Positions 22,905-33,888 of a DNA stretch of 64,000 nucleotides are shown one piece after another. Origin of the DNA: Candidatus Bathyarchaeota archaeon. GTDB taxonomy: Archaea > Thermoproteota > Bathyarchaeia > Bathyarchaeales > Bathycorpusculaceae. Both the position numbers and the translations under genes were made by a program. The notes below the pieces were generated by a model, which saw only the letters and a program-made list of their open reading frames with translations, was not told the origin of the DNA and did not search any database. Every line of letters starts with the position of its first letter. Position 1 is the stretch's first letter. The stretch lies in NCBI GenBank assembly GCA_963811105.1, contig CAWEPZ010000009.1, positions 352,001-416,000 of the forward strand. The letters run 5' to 3'.

Positions 22905-24572
22905 TTATGCTTTCACTGTTGCTTTTTTAGCCATTTCTTCGGTTAGCATACCGACTAGTTGCCCGTTCTTAACTAAAGCTGCTCGCGTCATTCCTTTTTC
23001 TTTCATTAGTGACATAGCTGTCATCATTGATTCGTCAGCTTGAAGAATTAAAAGCGGTGTAAAGTTAAGGTCCTTTGCAAGTGTTTTCTTGAGGTCTCTT
23101 TGCTTCTCAGCTATCTCATTTAGAAGCTCTCGGTCATTGATTACTCCTATAGGCTTATGATTTTCAGTTATGAGAAGTGAAGTAACGCTATTTTGCATTA
23201 GTTTCTCCACAAGCTTAGCTACAGTATCAGTTGTTGAAACCTCAACTGCAGGAAGCTTGGTGCCGGCTCGGTTGCTGATTTCTGAAATGTCTATACCTCT
23301 CTTCCAAATATCATCAAGCATCTCACTTACTCTTTCGATTTGGCTAGGGTCTGTGGAATAGAATGTGTCAACTAAATAAAAGGCAGATTCACTTCCAAAA
23401 TCACTTAATGGAGGCATTTTAAACATGAACAGGTGCTTATTGTCCACAAGCATCATTGTTAGATAACTGATTGGGACATGTTTAACTTCGTAACGTGACA
23501 AAAGTCTTTGAGCTGGTTCAAGGTTGTCCAAATCGATTGATGCCATTACTCTAATTCTTAAGCCTTTTTTGAAGTACTTCAATAGCGGATCATCTTCCGC
23601 AAGACGGTTTATACTTTGGGATGTAGTGATTAACACTATGTCTTTTTTGGCACCTTCAAGAACCTTAGTTACTTTAGTCCACGCTTCCTCAACGCCTTTA
23701 ATAACAATTGTTTCGCCGATGGGTATTCCACTCTTCAACTCATCTATTCGCCTGGAAGCGTCAACGCCAGTTTGCCACATTTGCTCAAAAAAGGCTTTGA
23801 GAACAGAAATAAACATTTTATCGTTAATCCATAAGCCTTCATCTTCTAAATTCAAAACGGAAGCTTCGTTGCCAAAAGGTGCATACAAGATAGCCTCTTC
23901 TTCATCCTTAATTAGAAAGCGAGGGAAAAACTTTGAACTCATAGTGACATGACGAAGTCTAAAGTTCATTTTCCCTTCTGAAACGCTCTCATCTATTCTT
24001 TCAACAACTTTCAGGTTTTCAGGAGAAATGTCGGTTATAACTTGAAATTGGATAGCCCTATTTTCAGAAGCTGTGGCCGCTGAATCAAAAATTCCCGCAA
24101 TATCTTCTTGAACAAAACCCAAAGAAGTTGTTAAAACAATCACTTCCTTTTTCGATTCATCAATCATATTTAACATTTTTGAGTGAATCTTTTTCTTACC
24201 TGTAATAATTGAGAATTTGGCTACTGGATATTCTGATTCCGGAGCGCTTATAGATTGCCAAGCTGTTAAAAGGTCTTGTTTCTGATCGGTTAAGTTTTTA
24301 ACCTCATTCTCTTTTGTATTAATGAAGGAGCCCACTAAGGCTTCAAAAGGAACAATAGTAAAACGTGTGGGCCTTTCGAGGGTTGCTTCAATAAAGCCTT
24401 TTTCTTGAAGTTTCTTGAAAGTCCGATAAGCTTGAACTCGCTCCATCTTAAGCCGTTTAGCCACGAAGCTAGTAGATTGAACACCACTTTTGGCAAGAAA
24501 CATGTAAACTTGAATTTCCCGTTTTGAGAGACCAAGAATTTGTAAGAACTTGGTGACATCTTTCTCGCTCAT
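22905..24572 (-). CDS. TrmB-family transcriptional regulator with two effector domains and a C-terminal CBS pair
   Basis: N-terminal TrmB HTH (LGLSKREIQVY...Y..FKKLQEKGFI); two similar PLD-like segments each ending F/L..MW/IW..G; CBS motifs (PIGVINDRE, LVGMLTE). Confidence 0.85.
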   Translation of the reverse strand: MSEKDVTKFLQILGLSKREIQVYMFLAKSGVQSTSFVAKRLKMERVQAYRTFKKLQEKGFIEATLERPTRFTIVPFEALVGSFINTKENEVKNLTDQKQDLLTAWQSISAPESEYPVAKFSIITGKKKIHSKMLNMIDESKKEVIVLTTSLGFVQEDIAGIFDSAATASENRAIQFQVITDISPENLKVVERIDESVSEGKMNFRLRHVTMSSKFFPRFLIKDEEEAILYAPFGNEASVLNLEDEGLWINDKMFISVLKAFFEQMWQTGVDASRRIDELKSGIPIGETIVIKGVEEAWTKVTKVLEGAKKDIVLITTSQSINRLAEDDPLLKYFKKGLRIRVMASIDLDNLEPAQRLLSRYEVKHVPISYLTMMLVDNKHLFMFKMPPLSDFGSESAFYLVDTFYSTDPSQIERVSEMLDDIWKRGIDISEISNRAGTKLPAVEVSTTDTVAKLVEKLMQNSVTSLLITENHKPIGVINDRELLNEIAEKQRDLKKTLAKDLNFTPLLILQADESMMTAMSLMKEKGMTRAALVKNGQLVGMLTEEMAKKATVKA

Positions 24573-27488: not shown

Positions 27489-27725
27489 TTTTAGAGCCCC
27501 AATAAACTAACTATTGTCAACCTTTTAACTTAATAAACAGTTTTGTTGCCCTACGCATTAAAAACCGTATTTTCACATTAAGAAATTGAATGTAAGAGTA
27601 TTCAAGGCGCAATTTGATTGCTAATCTTGCACAAAGGTTGACTTGACTTTGACATACGTAAGTTTAAAGTCTGCCGTTAAATTATAGGTAGAGCATCGAT
27701 TTGGGAGCACAGGGGAATAGGGTTT

Positions 27726-29942
27726 ATGGTAAATCAACCACCGCATCGCGCACGCGGCGTAAAAGTACTCAAAGCCGTCTCATCACCACTTAGGTTGCAA
27801 ATCCTTAACCTGCTATTTGACAAAAGCGCTCTCTCTTACACTGAATTAATGAACCAACTCAAAATGAATCCAAGTCGAGATGCAGGTAGATTTGCGTACC
27901 ACCTCAAATTTCTATTGAAGGCAGATTTAATTGAGGCAGACGTTGAAGCAAAAAAATATTATTTAACTGACCTTGGCAAAATGGTTCTTGATGTCGCCGA
28001 CCGCGTGGAGAAGAAAGCGGTTAAACCAAGAGGAATGCTTGTTCGTACATCTCATCTGACACTGGAAGAGTTTGATGCAAACAAAATAGCAAATTCACTG
28101 ATAAAAGAAGCAAAGGTGCCAGTTGAGTTAGCTCAGAAAGCAGCGAAAGAAGCAGAAAAACGTTTAGTTAAATCAAAAACAAAGTATCTTACGGCTTCGT
28201 TAATCAGGGAAGTTGTGAATGGCATTTTGGTTGAAAAGGGCTATGAAGATTACCGTCATAAACTCACACGCGTCGGAATGCCCATTCATGAGGTAACTGC
28301 TTCAATAGAATCAAAAGACACACCTGTTGATTCATCAGCTTTAATTACAAAAGCAGGTCAATCCGTCCTTGGCGAGTACACGTTGCTTAATATTTTCCCA
28401 AGAGACATAGCCGACGCGCACCTCTCAGGCGCCATCCACATTAATGATTTAGGCACATGGATACTAAAACCCAACGAAGTTAGCCACGACCTCCGATTCT
28501 TTTTCAGAAATGGACTCAAACTTGACAATCCCTTCCAAACTTCAATGGATCCACCTGACAACCTTGAATCAGCCTTAGCGATCGCCCTTAACATTATTCT
28601 GCACACCAACAAAGAAACAAACAAAATGCAAACATGTAGCTACTTCAATGTTTTTCTATCTCCATTTGCAAAAGACGTTGACACCTCAAAAATAAAAGAG
28701 AATATGCGTTTGTTCATTTTAAACCTGAACCAACAAGCTGAAGCTACATTAGGACTTGAGCTCACAATTCCGAAATTAATGGCGGAGCAAGAAGCAACCG
28801 GTCCAAAAGGAAAAATTAGCGGTAAATACAGTGACTTTTCCCAAGAGATCCAACTCTTAGCATCTGTCATTCTTGAAGTTTACGCGGAAGAGAATGCCAA
28901 AAAGCCATTGCTTGGCCCGAAATTAGTTATAAGAATTAACAAGGATTCGTTTACAGATGAAAAAGCTAAAATTGCTCTCCTAAAAGCACATGGCTTGGCT
29001 GCGGAAAAAGGAATAATACACTTCGCAAACACCGCAAACAAAGATACAGAAAACGCGGTTTTTTCTGCTTCGGGAGTTAAGCTTGCTCCTGACGTAATTG
29101 GGGACTGGGAAACCGACACCCTACGCACTGGCTGTCTTGGTTGTGTAACTATTAATCTGCCGAGAATCACTCAGGAAAGTGAGAAAGACAAGAACAAATT
29201 TTTTGATCTAGTGAGAGAACGCTTTGAATTATCGGCAAGGGCTTTAGGAATAAAAAGCAACGCGTTAAAACAATTCGGGAAAAACTCCTTGCCCTTTCTA
29301 CTAAAAAACGGTAATGGAGACGTATATTTCAGGCTAGAAAATAGTTCACGCATAATTAATTTAGCTGGGTTTCGAGAAGCTATTGAGGCTTTCACAGAAA
29401 AAAGCATAGATTCTGAGGAAAGCCGCAAGTTTGCCGAAGAAATCGTCCAAAATATTTTGGCATTCAAACAAAAAATTGGCAGAAAACATGGAAAACGACT
29501 CTACGCTGTTATGCTAAGTAACCCGGATGCTTCTGAGCGCCTTGCTCAGTTGGATATTGATAGGTTTGGCATAGCAAAAGTGAAGTATTCTGGAACAAGA
29601 GAAAAACCTTACTATTCAACCGCTAAAAGATTCCAAGTTAAGGCTGGCGAACCCCTCAGCATACCCCCTGAAATAGTGGAGACTGCACAGAAAATGAAGG
29701 GTTTAAACGCGGGCGGCAGTTTCTGTATCCTTGATTTGGGAGATACCCAATTTAAGCCTGAACCTCTGATGGAGTTAACCCGACACCTAATTGAGAACCC
29801 AATCTTCGAATTCTTCACTTACAACCGCATAATCAGTTTCTGCGATAACTGCAAAAACAGCTGGTTTGGAACGCTTCATAAATGCCCATCTTGTGGGTCC
29901 ATGAGCAAACTCGCAACGTTTGATCGCTTTGCATCCAACTAA
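27726..29942 (+). CDS. ArsR-HTH + ATP-cone + class III ribonucleotide reductase (NrdD)-like fusion, catalytic motifs missing
   Basis: HTH (SSPLRLQIL..SYTELM...FAYHLKFL), ATP cone (VRTS...EEFDANKIANSL...LIREVVN), NrdD segments (DAHLSGAIHINDL, GDWETDTLRTG, TINLPRI, ERLAQLD) and C-terminal CxxC-CxxC. No MGCR and no RxxGY. Confidence 0.85.
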   Translation: MVNQPPHRARGVKVLKAVSSPLRLQILNLLFDKSALSYTELMNQLKMNPSRDAGRFAYHLKFLLKADLIEADVEAKKYYLTDLGKMVLDVADRVEKKAVKPRGMLVRTSHLTLEEFDANKIANSLIKEAKVPVELAQKAAKEAEKRLVKSKTKYLTASLIREVVNGILVEKGYEDYRHKLTRVGMPIHEVTASIESKDTPVDSSALITKAGQSVLGEYTLLNIFPRDIADAHLSGAIHINDLGTWILKPNEVSHDLRFFFRNGLKLDNPFQTSMDPPDNLESALAIALNIILHTNKETNKMQTCSYFNVFLSPFAKDVDTSKIKENMRLFILNLNQQAEATLGLELTIPKLMAEQEATGPKGKISGKYSDFSQEIQLLASVILEVYAEENAKKPLLGPKLVIRINKDSFTDEKAKIALLKAHGLAAEKGIIHFANTANKDTENAVFSASGVKLAPDVIGDWETDTLRTGCLGCVTINLPRITQESEKDKNKFFDLVRERFELSARALGIKSNALKQFGKNSLPFLLKNGNGDVYFRLENSSRIINLAGFREAIEAFTEKSIDSEESRKFAEEIVQNILAFKQKIGRKHGKRLYAVMLSNPDASERLAQLDIDRFGIAKVKYSGTREKPYYSTAKRFQVKAGEPLSIPPEIVETAQKMKGLNAGGSFCILDLGDTQFKPEPLMELTRHLIENPIFEFFTYNRIISFCDNCKNSWFGTLHKCPSCGSMSKLATFDRFASN

Positions 29943-29946
29943 AAGC

Positions 29947-30972
<1,026 letters not shown>

Positions 30973-32250: not shown

Positions 32251-33888
32251 ATGCTCATGCTTATTATTGCAACAATAGTTTTTCCAGCCCTCAATGTTCC
32301 CAGCACTAAAGCAATGGCAGAACAACCTTGGACCACCATGACACCTATGCCAACAGCGCGAGGAGGACTCGGCGTGGCCGTCGCAAACGGAAAGATTTAT
32401 GCAATCGGAGGCTTAAACGGTGACTTACCACTTAATACAAATGAACAGTATGATCCTGCCACAAACCAGTGGACAAGCAAAGCACCTTTGCCAACGGCAA
32501 GAAGCGGTTTTGCCATAGCGTCTTATAATAACGAAATCTATGCCATAGGGGGAACGGTCGGCAACGGATACGTGGGCAACAACGAAGTTTATAATCCTTT
32601 AACTAATTCTTGGGAAACAAAGGCGTCAATGCCTACTCCAAGGGCTGATTTTACAGCCAATGTGGTGAACGATAAAATCTATTTAATCGGTGGCAAAAGA
32701 TATTCAAGCAACAGTCCATATTTCAATGAAACAGACATTAACGAGGTTTATGATCCAGTTACTGATACGTGGACAACTGCCAAATCAATTTCGCACGCAG
32801 TTTATGGTTACGCATCAGCGGTTATAGATGGAAAAATTCAAATCATAGGAGGAGCAAAAAACCCAGTTTCGTTAGGAAGCACGGTTCTTGTAAATTCTAA
32901 CCAAGTGTATGATCCTCAAACTAACAATTGGACAATAGCTGCAAGCGCACCAAACTTAGTTTCCTATGGAGCTGCGTCAGTAACCCAAAATTTTATGGCG
33001 CCTTCACGTCTGTATTTTGTAGGTGGGTTTTCTTCGAACACTTATAGCGGTAATACTCAAGTTTATGACCCAACTAACGACACTTGGACCACTGACGTCT
33101 CTATGCTTACCGCTCGAGCCTACTTGGGCGTTGCTGTCGTAAACGATATTTTGTACGCAATCGGCGGCTTTGACGGCACAAATTGGCTAAGAACTGTGGA
33201 GCAGTATAAGCCTATTGGTTATGGAACAGTTCCGCCGGAAATTCAAATTACGTCTCCTGAAAACGAAACGTATACTGATGTGACTTTATCCTATGATGTT
33301 AACAAGGGGGTCGAATGGATGGGTTACAGTTTAGATGATCAAGCAAACCTAACCATAAAAGGAACTACCGAATTGTTTAACATGTCTCAGGGTGCACATA
33401 ACGTGATAATCTACGCTAACGACAGCATTGGCAACATGGGTCATTCGAACAGAGTTTTCTTTTCAATAGACACGATTGCTCCAAGTATTGTGATAATGCT
33501 TCCTCTAAACCAATCTTATAGTTCTACTGATATCCAATTAACTTTTAAAGTAGATGAGCCAACCAAAGAGTTGGCTTATATTTTAGATAATAACGCAAAG
33601 TTGAGTATAATTGGAAATGTAAGTTTGCCGGCACTAACCAACGGGTCTCATCGTTTAACGATTTACGCTACTGACGAAATCGGGAACGCAGACTCAAAAA
33701 CTGTGTACTTTAGTATACAGACTTTTCCAACTATGTTATGGGTTGCAATCATAGCCATAATAATCATAGTTGTAGCGGCAGGGTACCTGTTTGTGAAACG
33801 CAAAAAAGTAGAAAATAAACAAGAGTTACCGACAGATGCTGACTCGGCATCAGATAAAGAAAACAAAGTCACGGATTTAGAATCTTGA
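32251..33888 (+). CDS. Secreted Kelch-repeat beta-propeller with two Ig-like domains and a C-terminal TM anchor
   Basis: Signal peptide; six PTAR...IYAIGG...YDP.T..W repeats; two H...IYA.D.IGN repeats; TM followed by KRKK. Confidence 0.9.
   Translation: MLMLIIATIVFPALNVPSTKAMAEQPWTTMTPMPTARGGLGVAVANGKIYAIGGLNGDLPLNTNEQYDPATNQWTSKAPLPTARSGFAIASYNNEIYAIGGTVGNGYVGNNEVYNPLTNSWETKASMPTPRADFTANVVNDKIYLIGGKRYSSNSPYFNETDINEVYDPVTDTWTTAKSISHAVYGYASAVIDGKIQIIGGAKNPVSLGSTVLVNSNQVYDPQTNNWTIAASAPNLVSYGAASVTQNFMAPSRLYFVGGFSSNTYSGNTQVYDPTNDTWTTDVSMLTARAYLGVAVVNDILYAIGGFDGTNWLRTVEQYKPIGYGTVPPEIQITSPENETYTDVTLSYDVNKGVEWMGYSLDDQANLTIKGTTELFNMSQGAHNVIIYANDSIGNMGHSNRVFFSIDTIAPSIVIMLPLNQSYSSTDIQLTFKVDEPTKELAYILDNNAKLSIIGNVSLPALTNGSHRLTIYATDEIGNADSKTVYFSIQTFPTMLWVAIIAIIIIVVAAGYLFVKRKKVENKQELPTDADSASDKENKVTDLES

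Follow-up and report, generated by a model that had tools for sequence, protein, structure and literature searches.

A non-catalytic class III ribonucleotide reductase fused to an ArsR-type winged helix is a candidate nucleotide-responsive regulator in archaea

What becomes of an anaerobic ribonucleotide reductase that has lost the residues of its radical chemistry and gained a DNA-binding domain? The question is raised by an open reading frame (ORF; 27726..29942, + strand) encoding a protein of 738 amino acids (aa), P0001, in a 64,000-nucleotide stretch of a Candidatus Bathyarchaeota genome (contig CAWEPZ010000009.1 of assembly GCA_963811105.1, positions 352,001 to 416,000), hereafter the window. 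The original prediction, made from the letters of the window, took P0001 to be an intact class III ribonucleotide reductase (RNR; NrdD) pseudo-enzyme reused as a nucleotide-sensing transcription factor. That core idea is strengthened by the placement of the family in a single clade, by selective constraint and by synteny with RNR and pyrimidine genes, and we consider it probable that this fusion gene encodes a class III RNR-derived, nucleotide-responsive transcription regulator of deoxynucleoside triphosphate (dNTP) and pyrimidine supply. DNA binding and nucleotide sensing by P0001 are inferences.

Pfam searches recovered, from the N-terminus onward, an ArsR-family helix-turn-helix (HTH_5, PF01022; residues 20-70, 27.5 bits against a gathering score of 22), DUF7347 (residues 14-88, 31 against a cut-off of 27.6), an ATP-cone (PF03477; residues 105-177, 30.1 bits against 25.8) and NRDD (residues 207-733, 221.8 bits), the last spanning profile positions 13-537 of 562 and ending just short of the glycyl-radical loop. 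For the barrel, NRDD was the only family to match at E-values up to 1. The NCBIfam NrdD equivalog TIGR02487 scored P0001 at 227.4 bits, under its cut-off of 326.35, and scored the catalytic NrdD that adjoins the gene in a related genome (L024) at 520.5 bits. An AlphaFold2 (AF2) model calculated from a 74-sequence alignment reached a predicted local distance difference test score (pLDDT) of 89.6 and a predicted template modelling score (pTM) of 0.80, with low confidence confined to residues 1-4 and to the 99-102 linker. The model matched class III RNR structures with Z scores of about 30-32 at 13-20% identity, among them those of Thermotoga maritima (4u3e_B; Z 31.6, 3.3 Å over 519 residues) and of phage T4 (NrdD, 1h78; Z 30.0, 2.5 Å over 464 residues), and class I RNRs and pyruvate-formate-lyase-type enzymes followed some 10 Z units lower. 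Pfam matches above the cut-offs and the model thus bear out the predicted succession of an ArsR winged helix-turn-helix (wHTH), an ATP-cone, an NrdD barrel and a Zn ribbon.

In the model, the wHTH consists of five helices and a beta-hairpin wing (H7-17, H21-33, H38-44, H49-65, E69-72, E77-80, H82-98), with a recognition helix at about residues 49-65 that bears DAGRFAYHLK; its nearest relatives among solved sequences are HlyU, PagR and ArsR, at a best E-value of 0.0012, which is marginal. The cone comprises strands E105-107 and E113-115 and helices within 118-179, and its hairpin reads V106-R107-T108-S109 (the VRTS subtype), with R107 invariant and the K-R pair of the canonical VxKRDG motif absent. 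By homology with NrdD, the core of P0001 is a putative dimerisation unit.

Residue losses were judged from three independent alignments (HMMER against T4 NrdD, BLASTP against the intact NrdD of the same genome, and MAFFT), all of which agreed on the predicted loss of the catalytic Gly and Cys. HMMER paired N250/E251 with N78/C79 of T4 NrdD, placing E251 at the top-face Cys, paired H238-I-N240-D241 with H64-V-H66-D67, from which the second His of HxHD is lost, and paired C706/C709 with the Zn ligands C543/C546; HxHD is the triphosphate-binding motif of NrdD according to the available excerpt of PMC11226230. In the BLASTP alignment (24% identity over 675 residues), SMCCRL of the same-genome NrdD faced SASGVK of P0001, and ...SRVVGYLRP faced the terminal ...DRFASN. 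MAFFT placed S449 at the thiyl Cys (T4 C290) and S737 at the radical Gly; S737-N738 fill the Gly-Tyr columns and are also the end of the protein, with no Gly beyond G724. The strings from which the loss had first been read, KPNEVSHDLR (248-257), FSASGVK (446-452) and TFDRFASN followed by the stop, are all present. No glycyl loop is hidden downstream, as had been argued, although the pyrB stop described as 5 bp away is in fact separated by 4 nt (fusion-gene TAA at 29940-29942, convergent pyrB stop at 29947-29949), a gap that leaves no room for a glycyl-radical domain.

The same losses run through the family. Some 85 alignment columns vary little or not at all among 14 catalytic NrdDs. At these columns 69 HTH-bearing relatives have lost both Cys, the Gly-Tyr pair, the PAE Glu, the YYxN Asn, a barrel His and the second His of HxHD, and the NxN flap is deleted, its columns being gaps in 69/69 and 66/69 members. 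NxN is among the most conserved NrdD motifs and hydrogen-bonds the substrate (PMC11226230, excerpt). The radical-Gly column holds a gap in 22 of the 69, Ala in 12, Gly in 11 and other residues in the rest, and not one member combines Gly there with the Cys pair; across the family the thiyl-Cys position is T, L or D and the top-face-Cys position T, E or S. Kept, on the other hand, are the cone core, AHxxGxIH (A231-H232..G235..H238), D255, N477-L-P, G548/E551, D610, Y630, G663-G664 and the four Cys of the Zn ribbon, the last invariant in 69/69. The tail varies in length: distant members are longer but lack the Gly, some close members stop earlier, and the variation within one family fits a dispensable glycyl domain.

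Relatives of P0001 are numerous. The best 120 after clustering at 90% are 73-96% identical to it and about 738 aa long, all 120 with PF03477 and 118 with an HTH family besides the cone and NRDD, and at E-values up to 1e-3 the search returned 1700 relatives (50% clustering). In an alignment of 98 sequences of 600-800 aa (96 of 150 listed matches plus P0001 and P0002), with the HTH scored by a hidden Markov model (HMM) of the N-terminal 100 residues, 76 were HTH-bearing and non-catalytic, 8 HTH-less and catalytic, 14 HTH-less and non-catalytic, and none was both HTH-bearing and catalytic; HTH and catalysis therefore exclude each other in this sample. The losses called in P0001 recur in its relatives, none of the 76 HTH-bearing ones retaining the set of two active-site Cys and radical Gly. 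Phylogenetic trees placed 69/69 HTH members and one HTH-less row in one clade; with the HTH trimmed, and together with a second HTH-less dead row, this clade received a support of 99 in FastTree and an SH-aLRT of 99 in a thinned IQ-TREE analysis. The clade is nested among catalytic archaeal NrdDs with a VRTS-type cone, which are its closest sequence relatives, and the same cone type occurs in the catalytic NrdDs encoded beside the fusion gene. According to these trees, the fusion of an HTH to a dead NrdD is of single origin.

The distribution is broad. With a 74-member profile, matches at E-values up to 1e-20 were obtained in 144 of the 151 genomes sampled from the class (the weaker ones being catalytic NrdDs), and among the matches listed a copy scoring at least 686 bits occurred in about 99 of the 151. 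The recognition-helix pattern [DE][AS]G[KR]F[AGV]YHL[RK] was found in at least 597 stretches of species-representative genomes, 596 of them confirmed, and a search with the first 200 residues gave matches in 167 of the 251 genomes sampled from the phylum, over approximately residues 13-196 and in open frames of about 540-860 aa. By database name, relatives belong to Bathyarchaeia, Nitrosotenuis and Nitrosopumilus (including an entry for the cultured N. adriaticus) and, among Asgard archaea, to Jordarchaeia/Freyarchaeota, Promethearchaeota and Helarchaeota.

Several further sequences were recorded alongside the family. HTH-less dead NrdDs fell in separate clades (P0193, P0206, P0238, P0261, P0270 and P0250; P0227, P0236, P0237 and P0262; P0245; P0210) and may be independent pseudo-NrdDs. 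Catalytic NrdD relatives of 1000-1700 aa (P0177, P0183, P0188, P0195, P0203 and others) were matched in 2-4 stretches, as expected for inteins. One genome (G085) carries two full-length copies of the fusion gene, on contigs C13 and C11, and in another (G095:C3:909620-911816) the gene is broken by three stop codons and is probably a pseudogene. A language-model atlas groups NRDD and DUF7347 in clusters whose commonest phylum is Nanobdellota, which we note as a lead only.

Selection on the gene was estimated from 49 of 81 close orthologs (52 parsed by the start-codon rule, of which 49 passed the length filter) as NG86 medians of dN/dS, the ratio of nonsynonymous to synonymous substitution rates, over 41 ortholog pairs with 0.15 < dS < 1.2. 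The median was 0.096 for the whole protein, 0.032 for the HTH, 0.044 for the cone, 0.119 for the barrel and 0.080 for the Zn ribbon and tail; between the window gene and its closest relative, dN was 0.021 and dS 0.169. Every part of the protein is constrained, the DNA-binding and cone parts most strongly. Among close orthologs the mean identity to P0001 follows the same order (HTH 90%, cone 86%, barrel 63%), and in the cone region V106, R107, I121, L125, E128, R161, L168 and R182 are invariant in 74 sequences. Eleven diverse cones had a mean column identity of 71%, the cone being rated the best-conserved segment of the family, and 23 of 25 Nitrosopumilaceae loci encode the same 44 residues around the recognition helix. 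The survey of relatives proposed with the original prediction thus returned a widespread fusion under purifying selection, with a conserved HTH.

We rate genomic context as the strongest functional evidence, and what it suggests is a link to nucleotide supply. In 76 of the window's 80 closest relatives pyrB lies directly downstream and convergent, and no NrdD, NrdR or NrdG gene was found in the flanks of these 80. The arrangement differs in other Bathyarchaeia families, where in 6/6 fetched loci the fusion gene is followed on the same strand by a catalytic NrdD (...SRITGYYQ...), then by a convergent pyrB and a divergent pyrI. Of the best 20 class-level loci, 10 have a same-strand RNR gene whose start lies no more than 1.5 kb downstream, encoding NrdD in 7 (two types) and the class II enzyme NrdJ in 3; pyrB is convergent in 6, the window included, and nothing was recognised in 4. 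Family f11 has NrdJ downstream in 6 loci, directly adjacent in 3 and separated by a single opposite-strand gene in the other 3. In 24/25 loci of Nitrosopumilaceae the fusion gene is followed by a cone-bearing NrdJ (TIGR02504, 728 bits against 400), and five 99%-complete genomes of ammonia oxidisers of this family contained no other NRDD match, which leaves no catalytic NrdD partner there. At phylum level, genes for PyrH (archaeal UMP kinase), PyrI or PyrB flank the fusion gene in 7/27 loci, and in 3/27 (L130, L148, L154) a shorter form of about 540-620 aa stands divergent beside ornithine carbamoyltransferase. Linkage to two RNR classes, together with persistence where NrdD is lacking, argues against a dedicated NrdD subunit and favours a DNA-binding regulator. 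Separately, in one close relative (L060) the pyrB and dead-NrdD genes recur as a second, partial copy in inverted orientation, which might reflect misassembly or an inverted duplication at the locus.

How, then, does the genome that carries the window make its dNTPs? The assembly is 96.65% complete and contains exactly two NrdD-like genes. The second lies in an nrdR-nrdD-nrdG operon on contig C11 (locus L001; G000 contig C11: 581393-586120), which encodes an NrdD that has both MCCR and RVVGY, an NrdR composed of a Zn ribbon and a cone (L001 701-1147), and a radical S-adenosylmethionine (SAM) activase. Having such an intact operon, the genome has its dNTP synthesis accounted for without the fusion gene, and the separate intact RNR whose presence was to be checked is thereby found. 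The sole nrdG of the genome follows the intact nrdD on C11; the window contains no NrdG-like gene, as had been stated, and a lone match on contig C9 (E = 0.17) lies outside it. Searches of the genome found no class I or II RNR barrel, no PF01228 glycyl-radical domain and no stand-alone NrdD glycyl tail, and hence no glycyl domain that could act in trans. Genuine NrdR was detected in 20 of the 151 sampled genomes of the class, namely in 16/16 of the window's family and 4/27 of family f18, so that it occurs in just 4/135 genomes outside the window's family; this patchy distribution suggests that the window's family acquired the nrdR-nrdD-nrdG operon later. The operon is bacterial in style, with an NrdR-box-like sequence (ACACTAT...) upstream of nrdR.

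If P0001 binds DNA, where might it do so? A triple TTGAC repeat upstream of the gene had been offered as a possible autoregulatory site. The repeat is exact, but among 31 upstream regions inspected it is confined to the window and to a 96%-identical relative (L029), and genome-wide it gave 4 matches at up to 2 mismatches against 4 for a reversed control; being unconserved and without genome-wide excess, it was rejected as an operator. Blocks that are conserved upstream (AAGTTTAAA... and ATAGGTAGAGCA) look like a core promoter with TATA box and initiator, and since they are unique in the genome they were rejected as a regulon motif. No pairs were predicted for a leader RNA structure in 20 sequences. 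Enriched 6-mers in the Bathyarchaeia upstream regions were TATA-like words, a clade-specific TAGGTA block and ACACTA, the last in 11 of 27 diverse, partly related regions and a weak lead.

Nitrosopumilaceae offered a more promising lead. The density of units with a GATC core (AACTGATCYAAAA-like) is 19.6 per kb over the 200 nt that precede the fusion gene and 13.4 per kb over the spacer that leads to nrdJ; coding sequences have 4.6 per kb and other intergenic regions 5.3 per kb (loci L159-L178, L127, L134 and L150-L152). In 17 de-replicated loci, 31 of 84 adjacent GATC spacings measure 10-11, 20-22 or 31-32 bp, roughly one, two or three times 10.5 bp. Random placement gave 8.7 ± 2.8, and 0 of 2000 random trials reached 31; this set of spacings was picked after the data had been seen, and the loci are related. 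We regard the GATC arrays as a lead to a candidate operator in this family.

From trees and synteny, the following course of events can be proposed. An archaeal nrdD with a VRTS-type cone would have been duplicated in tandem; the upstream copy would have acquired a winged helix of the ArsR type and shed its glycyl loop, its two active-site Cys, its NxN flap and the intact HxHD motif, with fold, cone and Zn ribbon kept. The ancestral order would then be regulator followed by RNR gene. In the window's family the adjacent RNR gene was presumably lost, the nrdR-nrdD-nrdG operon may have taken over RNR supply and perhaps RNR control, and the C-terminal remnant would have been trimmed to the former Gly position.

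In the mechanism that we favour, the ArsR domain would bind promoter DNA and the cone would read the status of adenine and deoxyadenine nucleotides, possibly with the remains of the effector site at the dimer interface. As in NrdR and active RNRs, loading of the cone would make the RNR-like scaffold change shape or oligomeric state, and DNA binding would change with it. In RNRs and NrdR, binding of ATP/dATP to the cone brings about a switch in conformation or oligomeric state (PMC11226230 and PMC9110341, in the excerpts available). As it is conserved and common to the catalytic sister enzymes, the cone appears the most plausible sensor, and the degraded substrate-binding motifs of the barrel make sensing through the old active site unlikely. 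Judged by its neighbourhood, the protein would act on the promoter of its own gene and on the ancestrally downstream RNR gene, probably also on pyrBI and pyrH; strong constraint beside pyrB despite the lost RNR neighbour means that the regulon is probably wider than one RNR operon.

A bolder version, which we find possible yet hold only tentatively, would have this family fill, in TACK and Asgard archaea, the long-vacant place of an archaeal NrdR. A whole fossil class III RNR would here serve as the sensor, its cone and perhaps its old specificity site reading the ATP/dATP/dNTP balance and setting the transcription of whichever RNR and pyrimidine genes are present, in Nitrosopumilaceae through phased GATC repeats before its own gene and nrdJ. 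Since few sampled genomes of the class have NrdR, it is plausible that RNR genes are under a further regulator there, for which this family is a concrete candidate, strongly backed by the comparisons. The analogy with NrdR that the original prediction had drawn needs one correction, in that the fusion protein must coexist with the genuine nrdR-nrdD-nrdG operon and is not the sole candidate RNR regulator in the window's family.

Several observations weigh against a nucleotide-responsive regulator, beginning with that NrdR, which the genome already has with its nrdDG operon. The VRTS cone lacks the canonical K-R of VxKRDG and clears its Pfam cut-off narrowly, and the cone region by itself finds no solved ATP-cone by sequence. 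The E/H/K/D columns (alignment positions 359-367), held by 13/14 catalytic NrdDs, are S204, I207, T208 and Q212 in P0001, and if they belong to the effector site, that site would be gone. Purifying selection on the barrel (0.119) is not required of a pure scaffold. On the DNA side, no recurrent k-mers are common to the fusion-gene promoter and the pre-RNR spacer, the GATC enrichment is not seen in Bathyarchaeia upstream regions, the post hoc choice of GATC spacings and the relatedness of the loci temper that lead, and no operator emerged for the window's clade. Finally, no reference nucleotide-metabolism gene was detected in the flanks of 11/27 phylum-level loci.

Comparison with characterised systems sets out what is familiar and what is not. 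NrdR likewise joins a DNA-binding module to an ATP-cone and is encoded beside RNR genes, nrdR-nrdJ and nrdR-nrdD operons being common, and ATP/dATP loading of its cone switches oligomeric state and DNA binding (PMC9110341, excerpt). It differs in binding DNA through an N-terminal Zn ribbon, which is not homologous to the ArsR wHTH of the fusion, and in its size (about 150 aa): the fusion is five times larger and has a whole RNR core and a VRTS cone, and neither TIGR00244 nor Zn_ribbon_NrdR matched P0001. Catalytic NrdDs (T4, T. maritima, P. copri, S. thermophilus) share with P0001 the fold, the ATP-cone, the Cys4 Zn ribbon, AHxxGxIH, NLP and GG; the fusion differs by the catalytic losses listed above (Gly-Tyr, both Cys, NxN, the HxHD second His, the PAE Glu and the YYxN Asn) and by its extra N-terminal wHTH. 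With ArsR/SmtB proteins (HlyU, PagR, ArsR) it has in common the HTH_5 match, the alpha1-alpha5 plus wing topology and ...xHLxxL... in the recognition helix, whereas a four-residue insertion precedes that helix and an RNR fossil takes the place of a metal site as effector domain.

Fossil or active enzyme folds are known to serve as ligand sensors of HTH transcription factors, as in Bacillus subtilis PurR and in MocR/GabR; to our knowledge, none of these is RNR-derived. Neither the fusion of an HTH to a sensor of enzymatic origin nor an RNR regulator that works through a cone is new as a general kind. Neither an HTH-NrdD fusion nor DUF7347 turned up in the searchable literature, RNR-family phylogeny papers included, though subscription journals or supplements may hold one; within the literature searched, an RNR-built regulator and its broad archaeal distribution appear undescribed.

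Of the other explanations, the one that survives best is that P0001 has remained an enzyme whose old barrel performs a new chemistry not based on radicals and whose HTH serves autoregulation, which would make it a bifunctional enzyme-repressor. The constraint on the barrel (dN/dS 0.119) and the conservation of its polar residues (H232, H238, D255, N477, E551, D610, Y630, G663-G664) would suit such a protein, and there is a precedent in GlyXL (DUF711-type), a distant NrdD relative that lacks the catalytic residues and serves aerobic glycine synthesis (bioRxiv 10.1101/2024.10.14.618325, as far as the accessible text goes). GlyXL resembles P0001 in having an NrdD-related barrel without the radical residues, which works without oxygen sensitivity, but it is an enzyme and no regulator, pairs with an ACT-domain protein and has no HTH or cone, and no GlyXL/DUF711 family was among the Pfam matches of P0001 at E-values up to 1. 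Conservation is, moreover, lowest in the barrel (63%, compared with 90% in the HTH and 86% in the cone); its substrate-contacting NxN flap is deleted and its HxHD broken, it has no non-NRDD Pfam family, and its neighbours are RNR and pyr genes with no sign of a new pathway. We consider a surviving enzyme unlikely.

A second possibility is a role outside transcription, in which the protein would pair with the catalytic RNR for regulation or scaffolding, like the pseudo-subunits of some class I systems, and would use the HTH for another contact. Such a role would agree with the proposed origin as a tandem paralog of nrdD, often still adjoining it, and with NrdD enzymes being dimers with effector sites at the interface (PMC11226230, excerpt). 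It sits poorly with the equal linkage to class II NrdJ and the persistence in genomes without a catalytic NrdD, with the window's family, where the sister NrdD is gone and the fusion gene kept, and with an ArsR domain that, recognition helix included, is by dN/dS (0.032) the most conserved segment. This reading, too, has a low probability in our judgement.

As improbable is DNA binding that is not gene-specific, for instance by a dNTP-status sensor at replication origins or on chromatin. Weak matches to Sso10a-family chromatin-protein and other wHTH models point in that direction, as does the lack of a regulon-type motif in the window's genome, and the phased GATC arrays of Nitrosopumilaceae could suit a multimeric DNA-coating protein. 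The arrays stand, however, at the promoters of the fusion gene and nrdJ and not elsewhere in the fetched loci, and synteny with RNR and pyr genes is what would be expected of a local regulator.

The two remaining readings have next to no probability. That P0001 is a working anaerobic ribonucleoside-triphosphate reductase is what the NRDD match and the NCBI and JGI names would imply, against which stand the missing radical Gly, thiyl Cys, top-face Cys and NxN flap, the broken HxHD, a TIGR02487 score of 227 bits below a threshold of 326 where a true NrdD scores 520, the lack of a trans glycyl domain in the genome and the presence of the protein in ammonia-oxidising archaea, whose lifestyle is obligately aerobic. 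A decaying pseudogene or an assembly artefact, to which the truncated C-terminal tail and the G095 gene with its three stops might point, is at odds with an intact frame, a dN/dS of about 0.1 and hundreds of full-length orthologs across phyla.

A nucleotide-responsive regulator remains the reading that we prefer, and it matters for annotation. Databases (NCBI, JGI) label relatives variously as anaerobic RNR, ArsR-family regulator, HTH protein or hypothetical protein. On Bathyarchaeia, ammonia-oxidiser and Asgard relatives the label 'anaerobic ribonucleoside-triphosphate reductase' misleads, the family being incapable of glycyl-radical chemistry, and metabolic reconstructions that read it as anaerobic dNTP synthesis are wrong for these genomes. 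If the regulator hypothesis is true, a whole allosteric enzyme has been retained as a sensor after its chemistry was lost; orthologs in cultured Nitrosopumilus such as N. adriaticus bring that hypothesis within experimental reach. The coordinates of the gene, its parts and its immediate surroundings are collected in Table 1.

Table 1 Features of the fusion gene and its flanks (window coordinates).
Feature	Position	Strand	Basis
wHTH / ATP-cone / dead-NrdD / Zn-ribbon gene (P0001)	27726..29942	+	ORF, translation, Pfam, AF2 model, class III RNR fold
ArsR/SmtB-type wHTH, residues 7-98	27744..28019	+	HTH_5, DUF7347, AF2 model
ATP-cone, VRTS subtype, residues 103-180	28032..28265	+	PF03477, beta-hairpin and four helices
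NrdD-like ten-stranded barrel core, residues 196-700	28311..29825	+	alignments, AF2 model
Cys4 Zn ribbon (C706, C709, C720, C723)	29841..29894	+	alignments
Truncated glycyl-radical-loop remnant (GSMSKLATFDRFASN and stop)	29895..29942	+	BLASTP, MAFFT; S737 at radical-Gly column
TTGAC x3 repeat (TTGACTTGACTTTGAC)	27638..27653	+	exact match; not conserved
Conserved promoter/leader (putative)	27655..27725	+	kept across orthologous upstream regions; purine-rich just before the ATG
AAGTTTAAAGTCTGCC block	27660-27675	+	holds TTTAAA TATA-like box 27663-27668
AATTATAGGTAGAGCA block	27680-27695	+	part of the conserved promoter/leader
pyrB, aspartate carbamoyltransferase, convergent conserved neighbour	29947..30885	-	TIGR00670, 386 bits against a cut-off of 237

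Elsewhere in the window, a gene for a 555-aa TrmB-family regulator with CBS domains (22905-24572, - strand) lies three genes upstream of the fusion gene, with the genes for RNase HII, fibrillarin and Nop5/56 between the two; TrmB-type proteins with such domains are likewise ligand-sensing archaeal regulators. Beyond pyrB, at 32251-33888 (+ strand), lies the gene for a beta-propeller protein of 545 aa with Kelch repeats, whose C-terminus matches an Ig-like family (Big_13).

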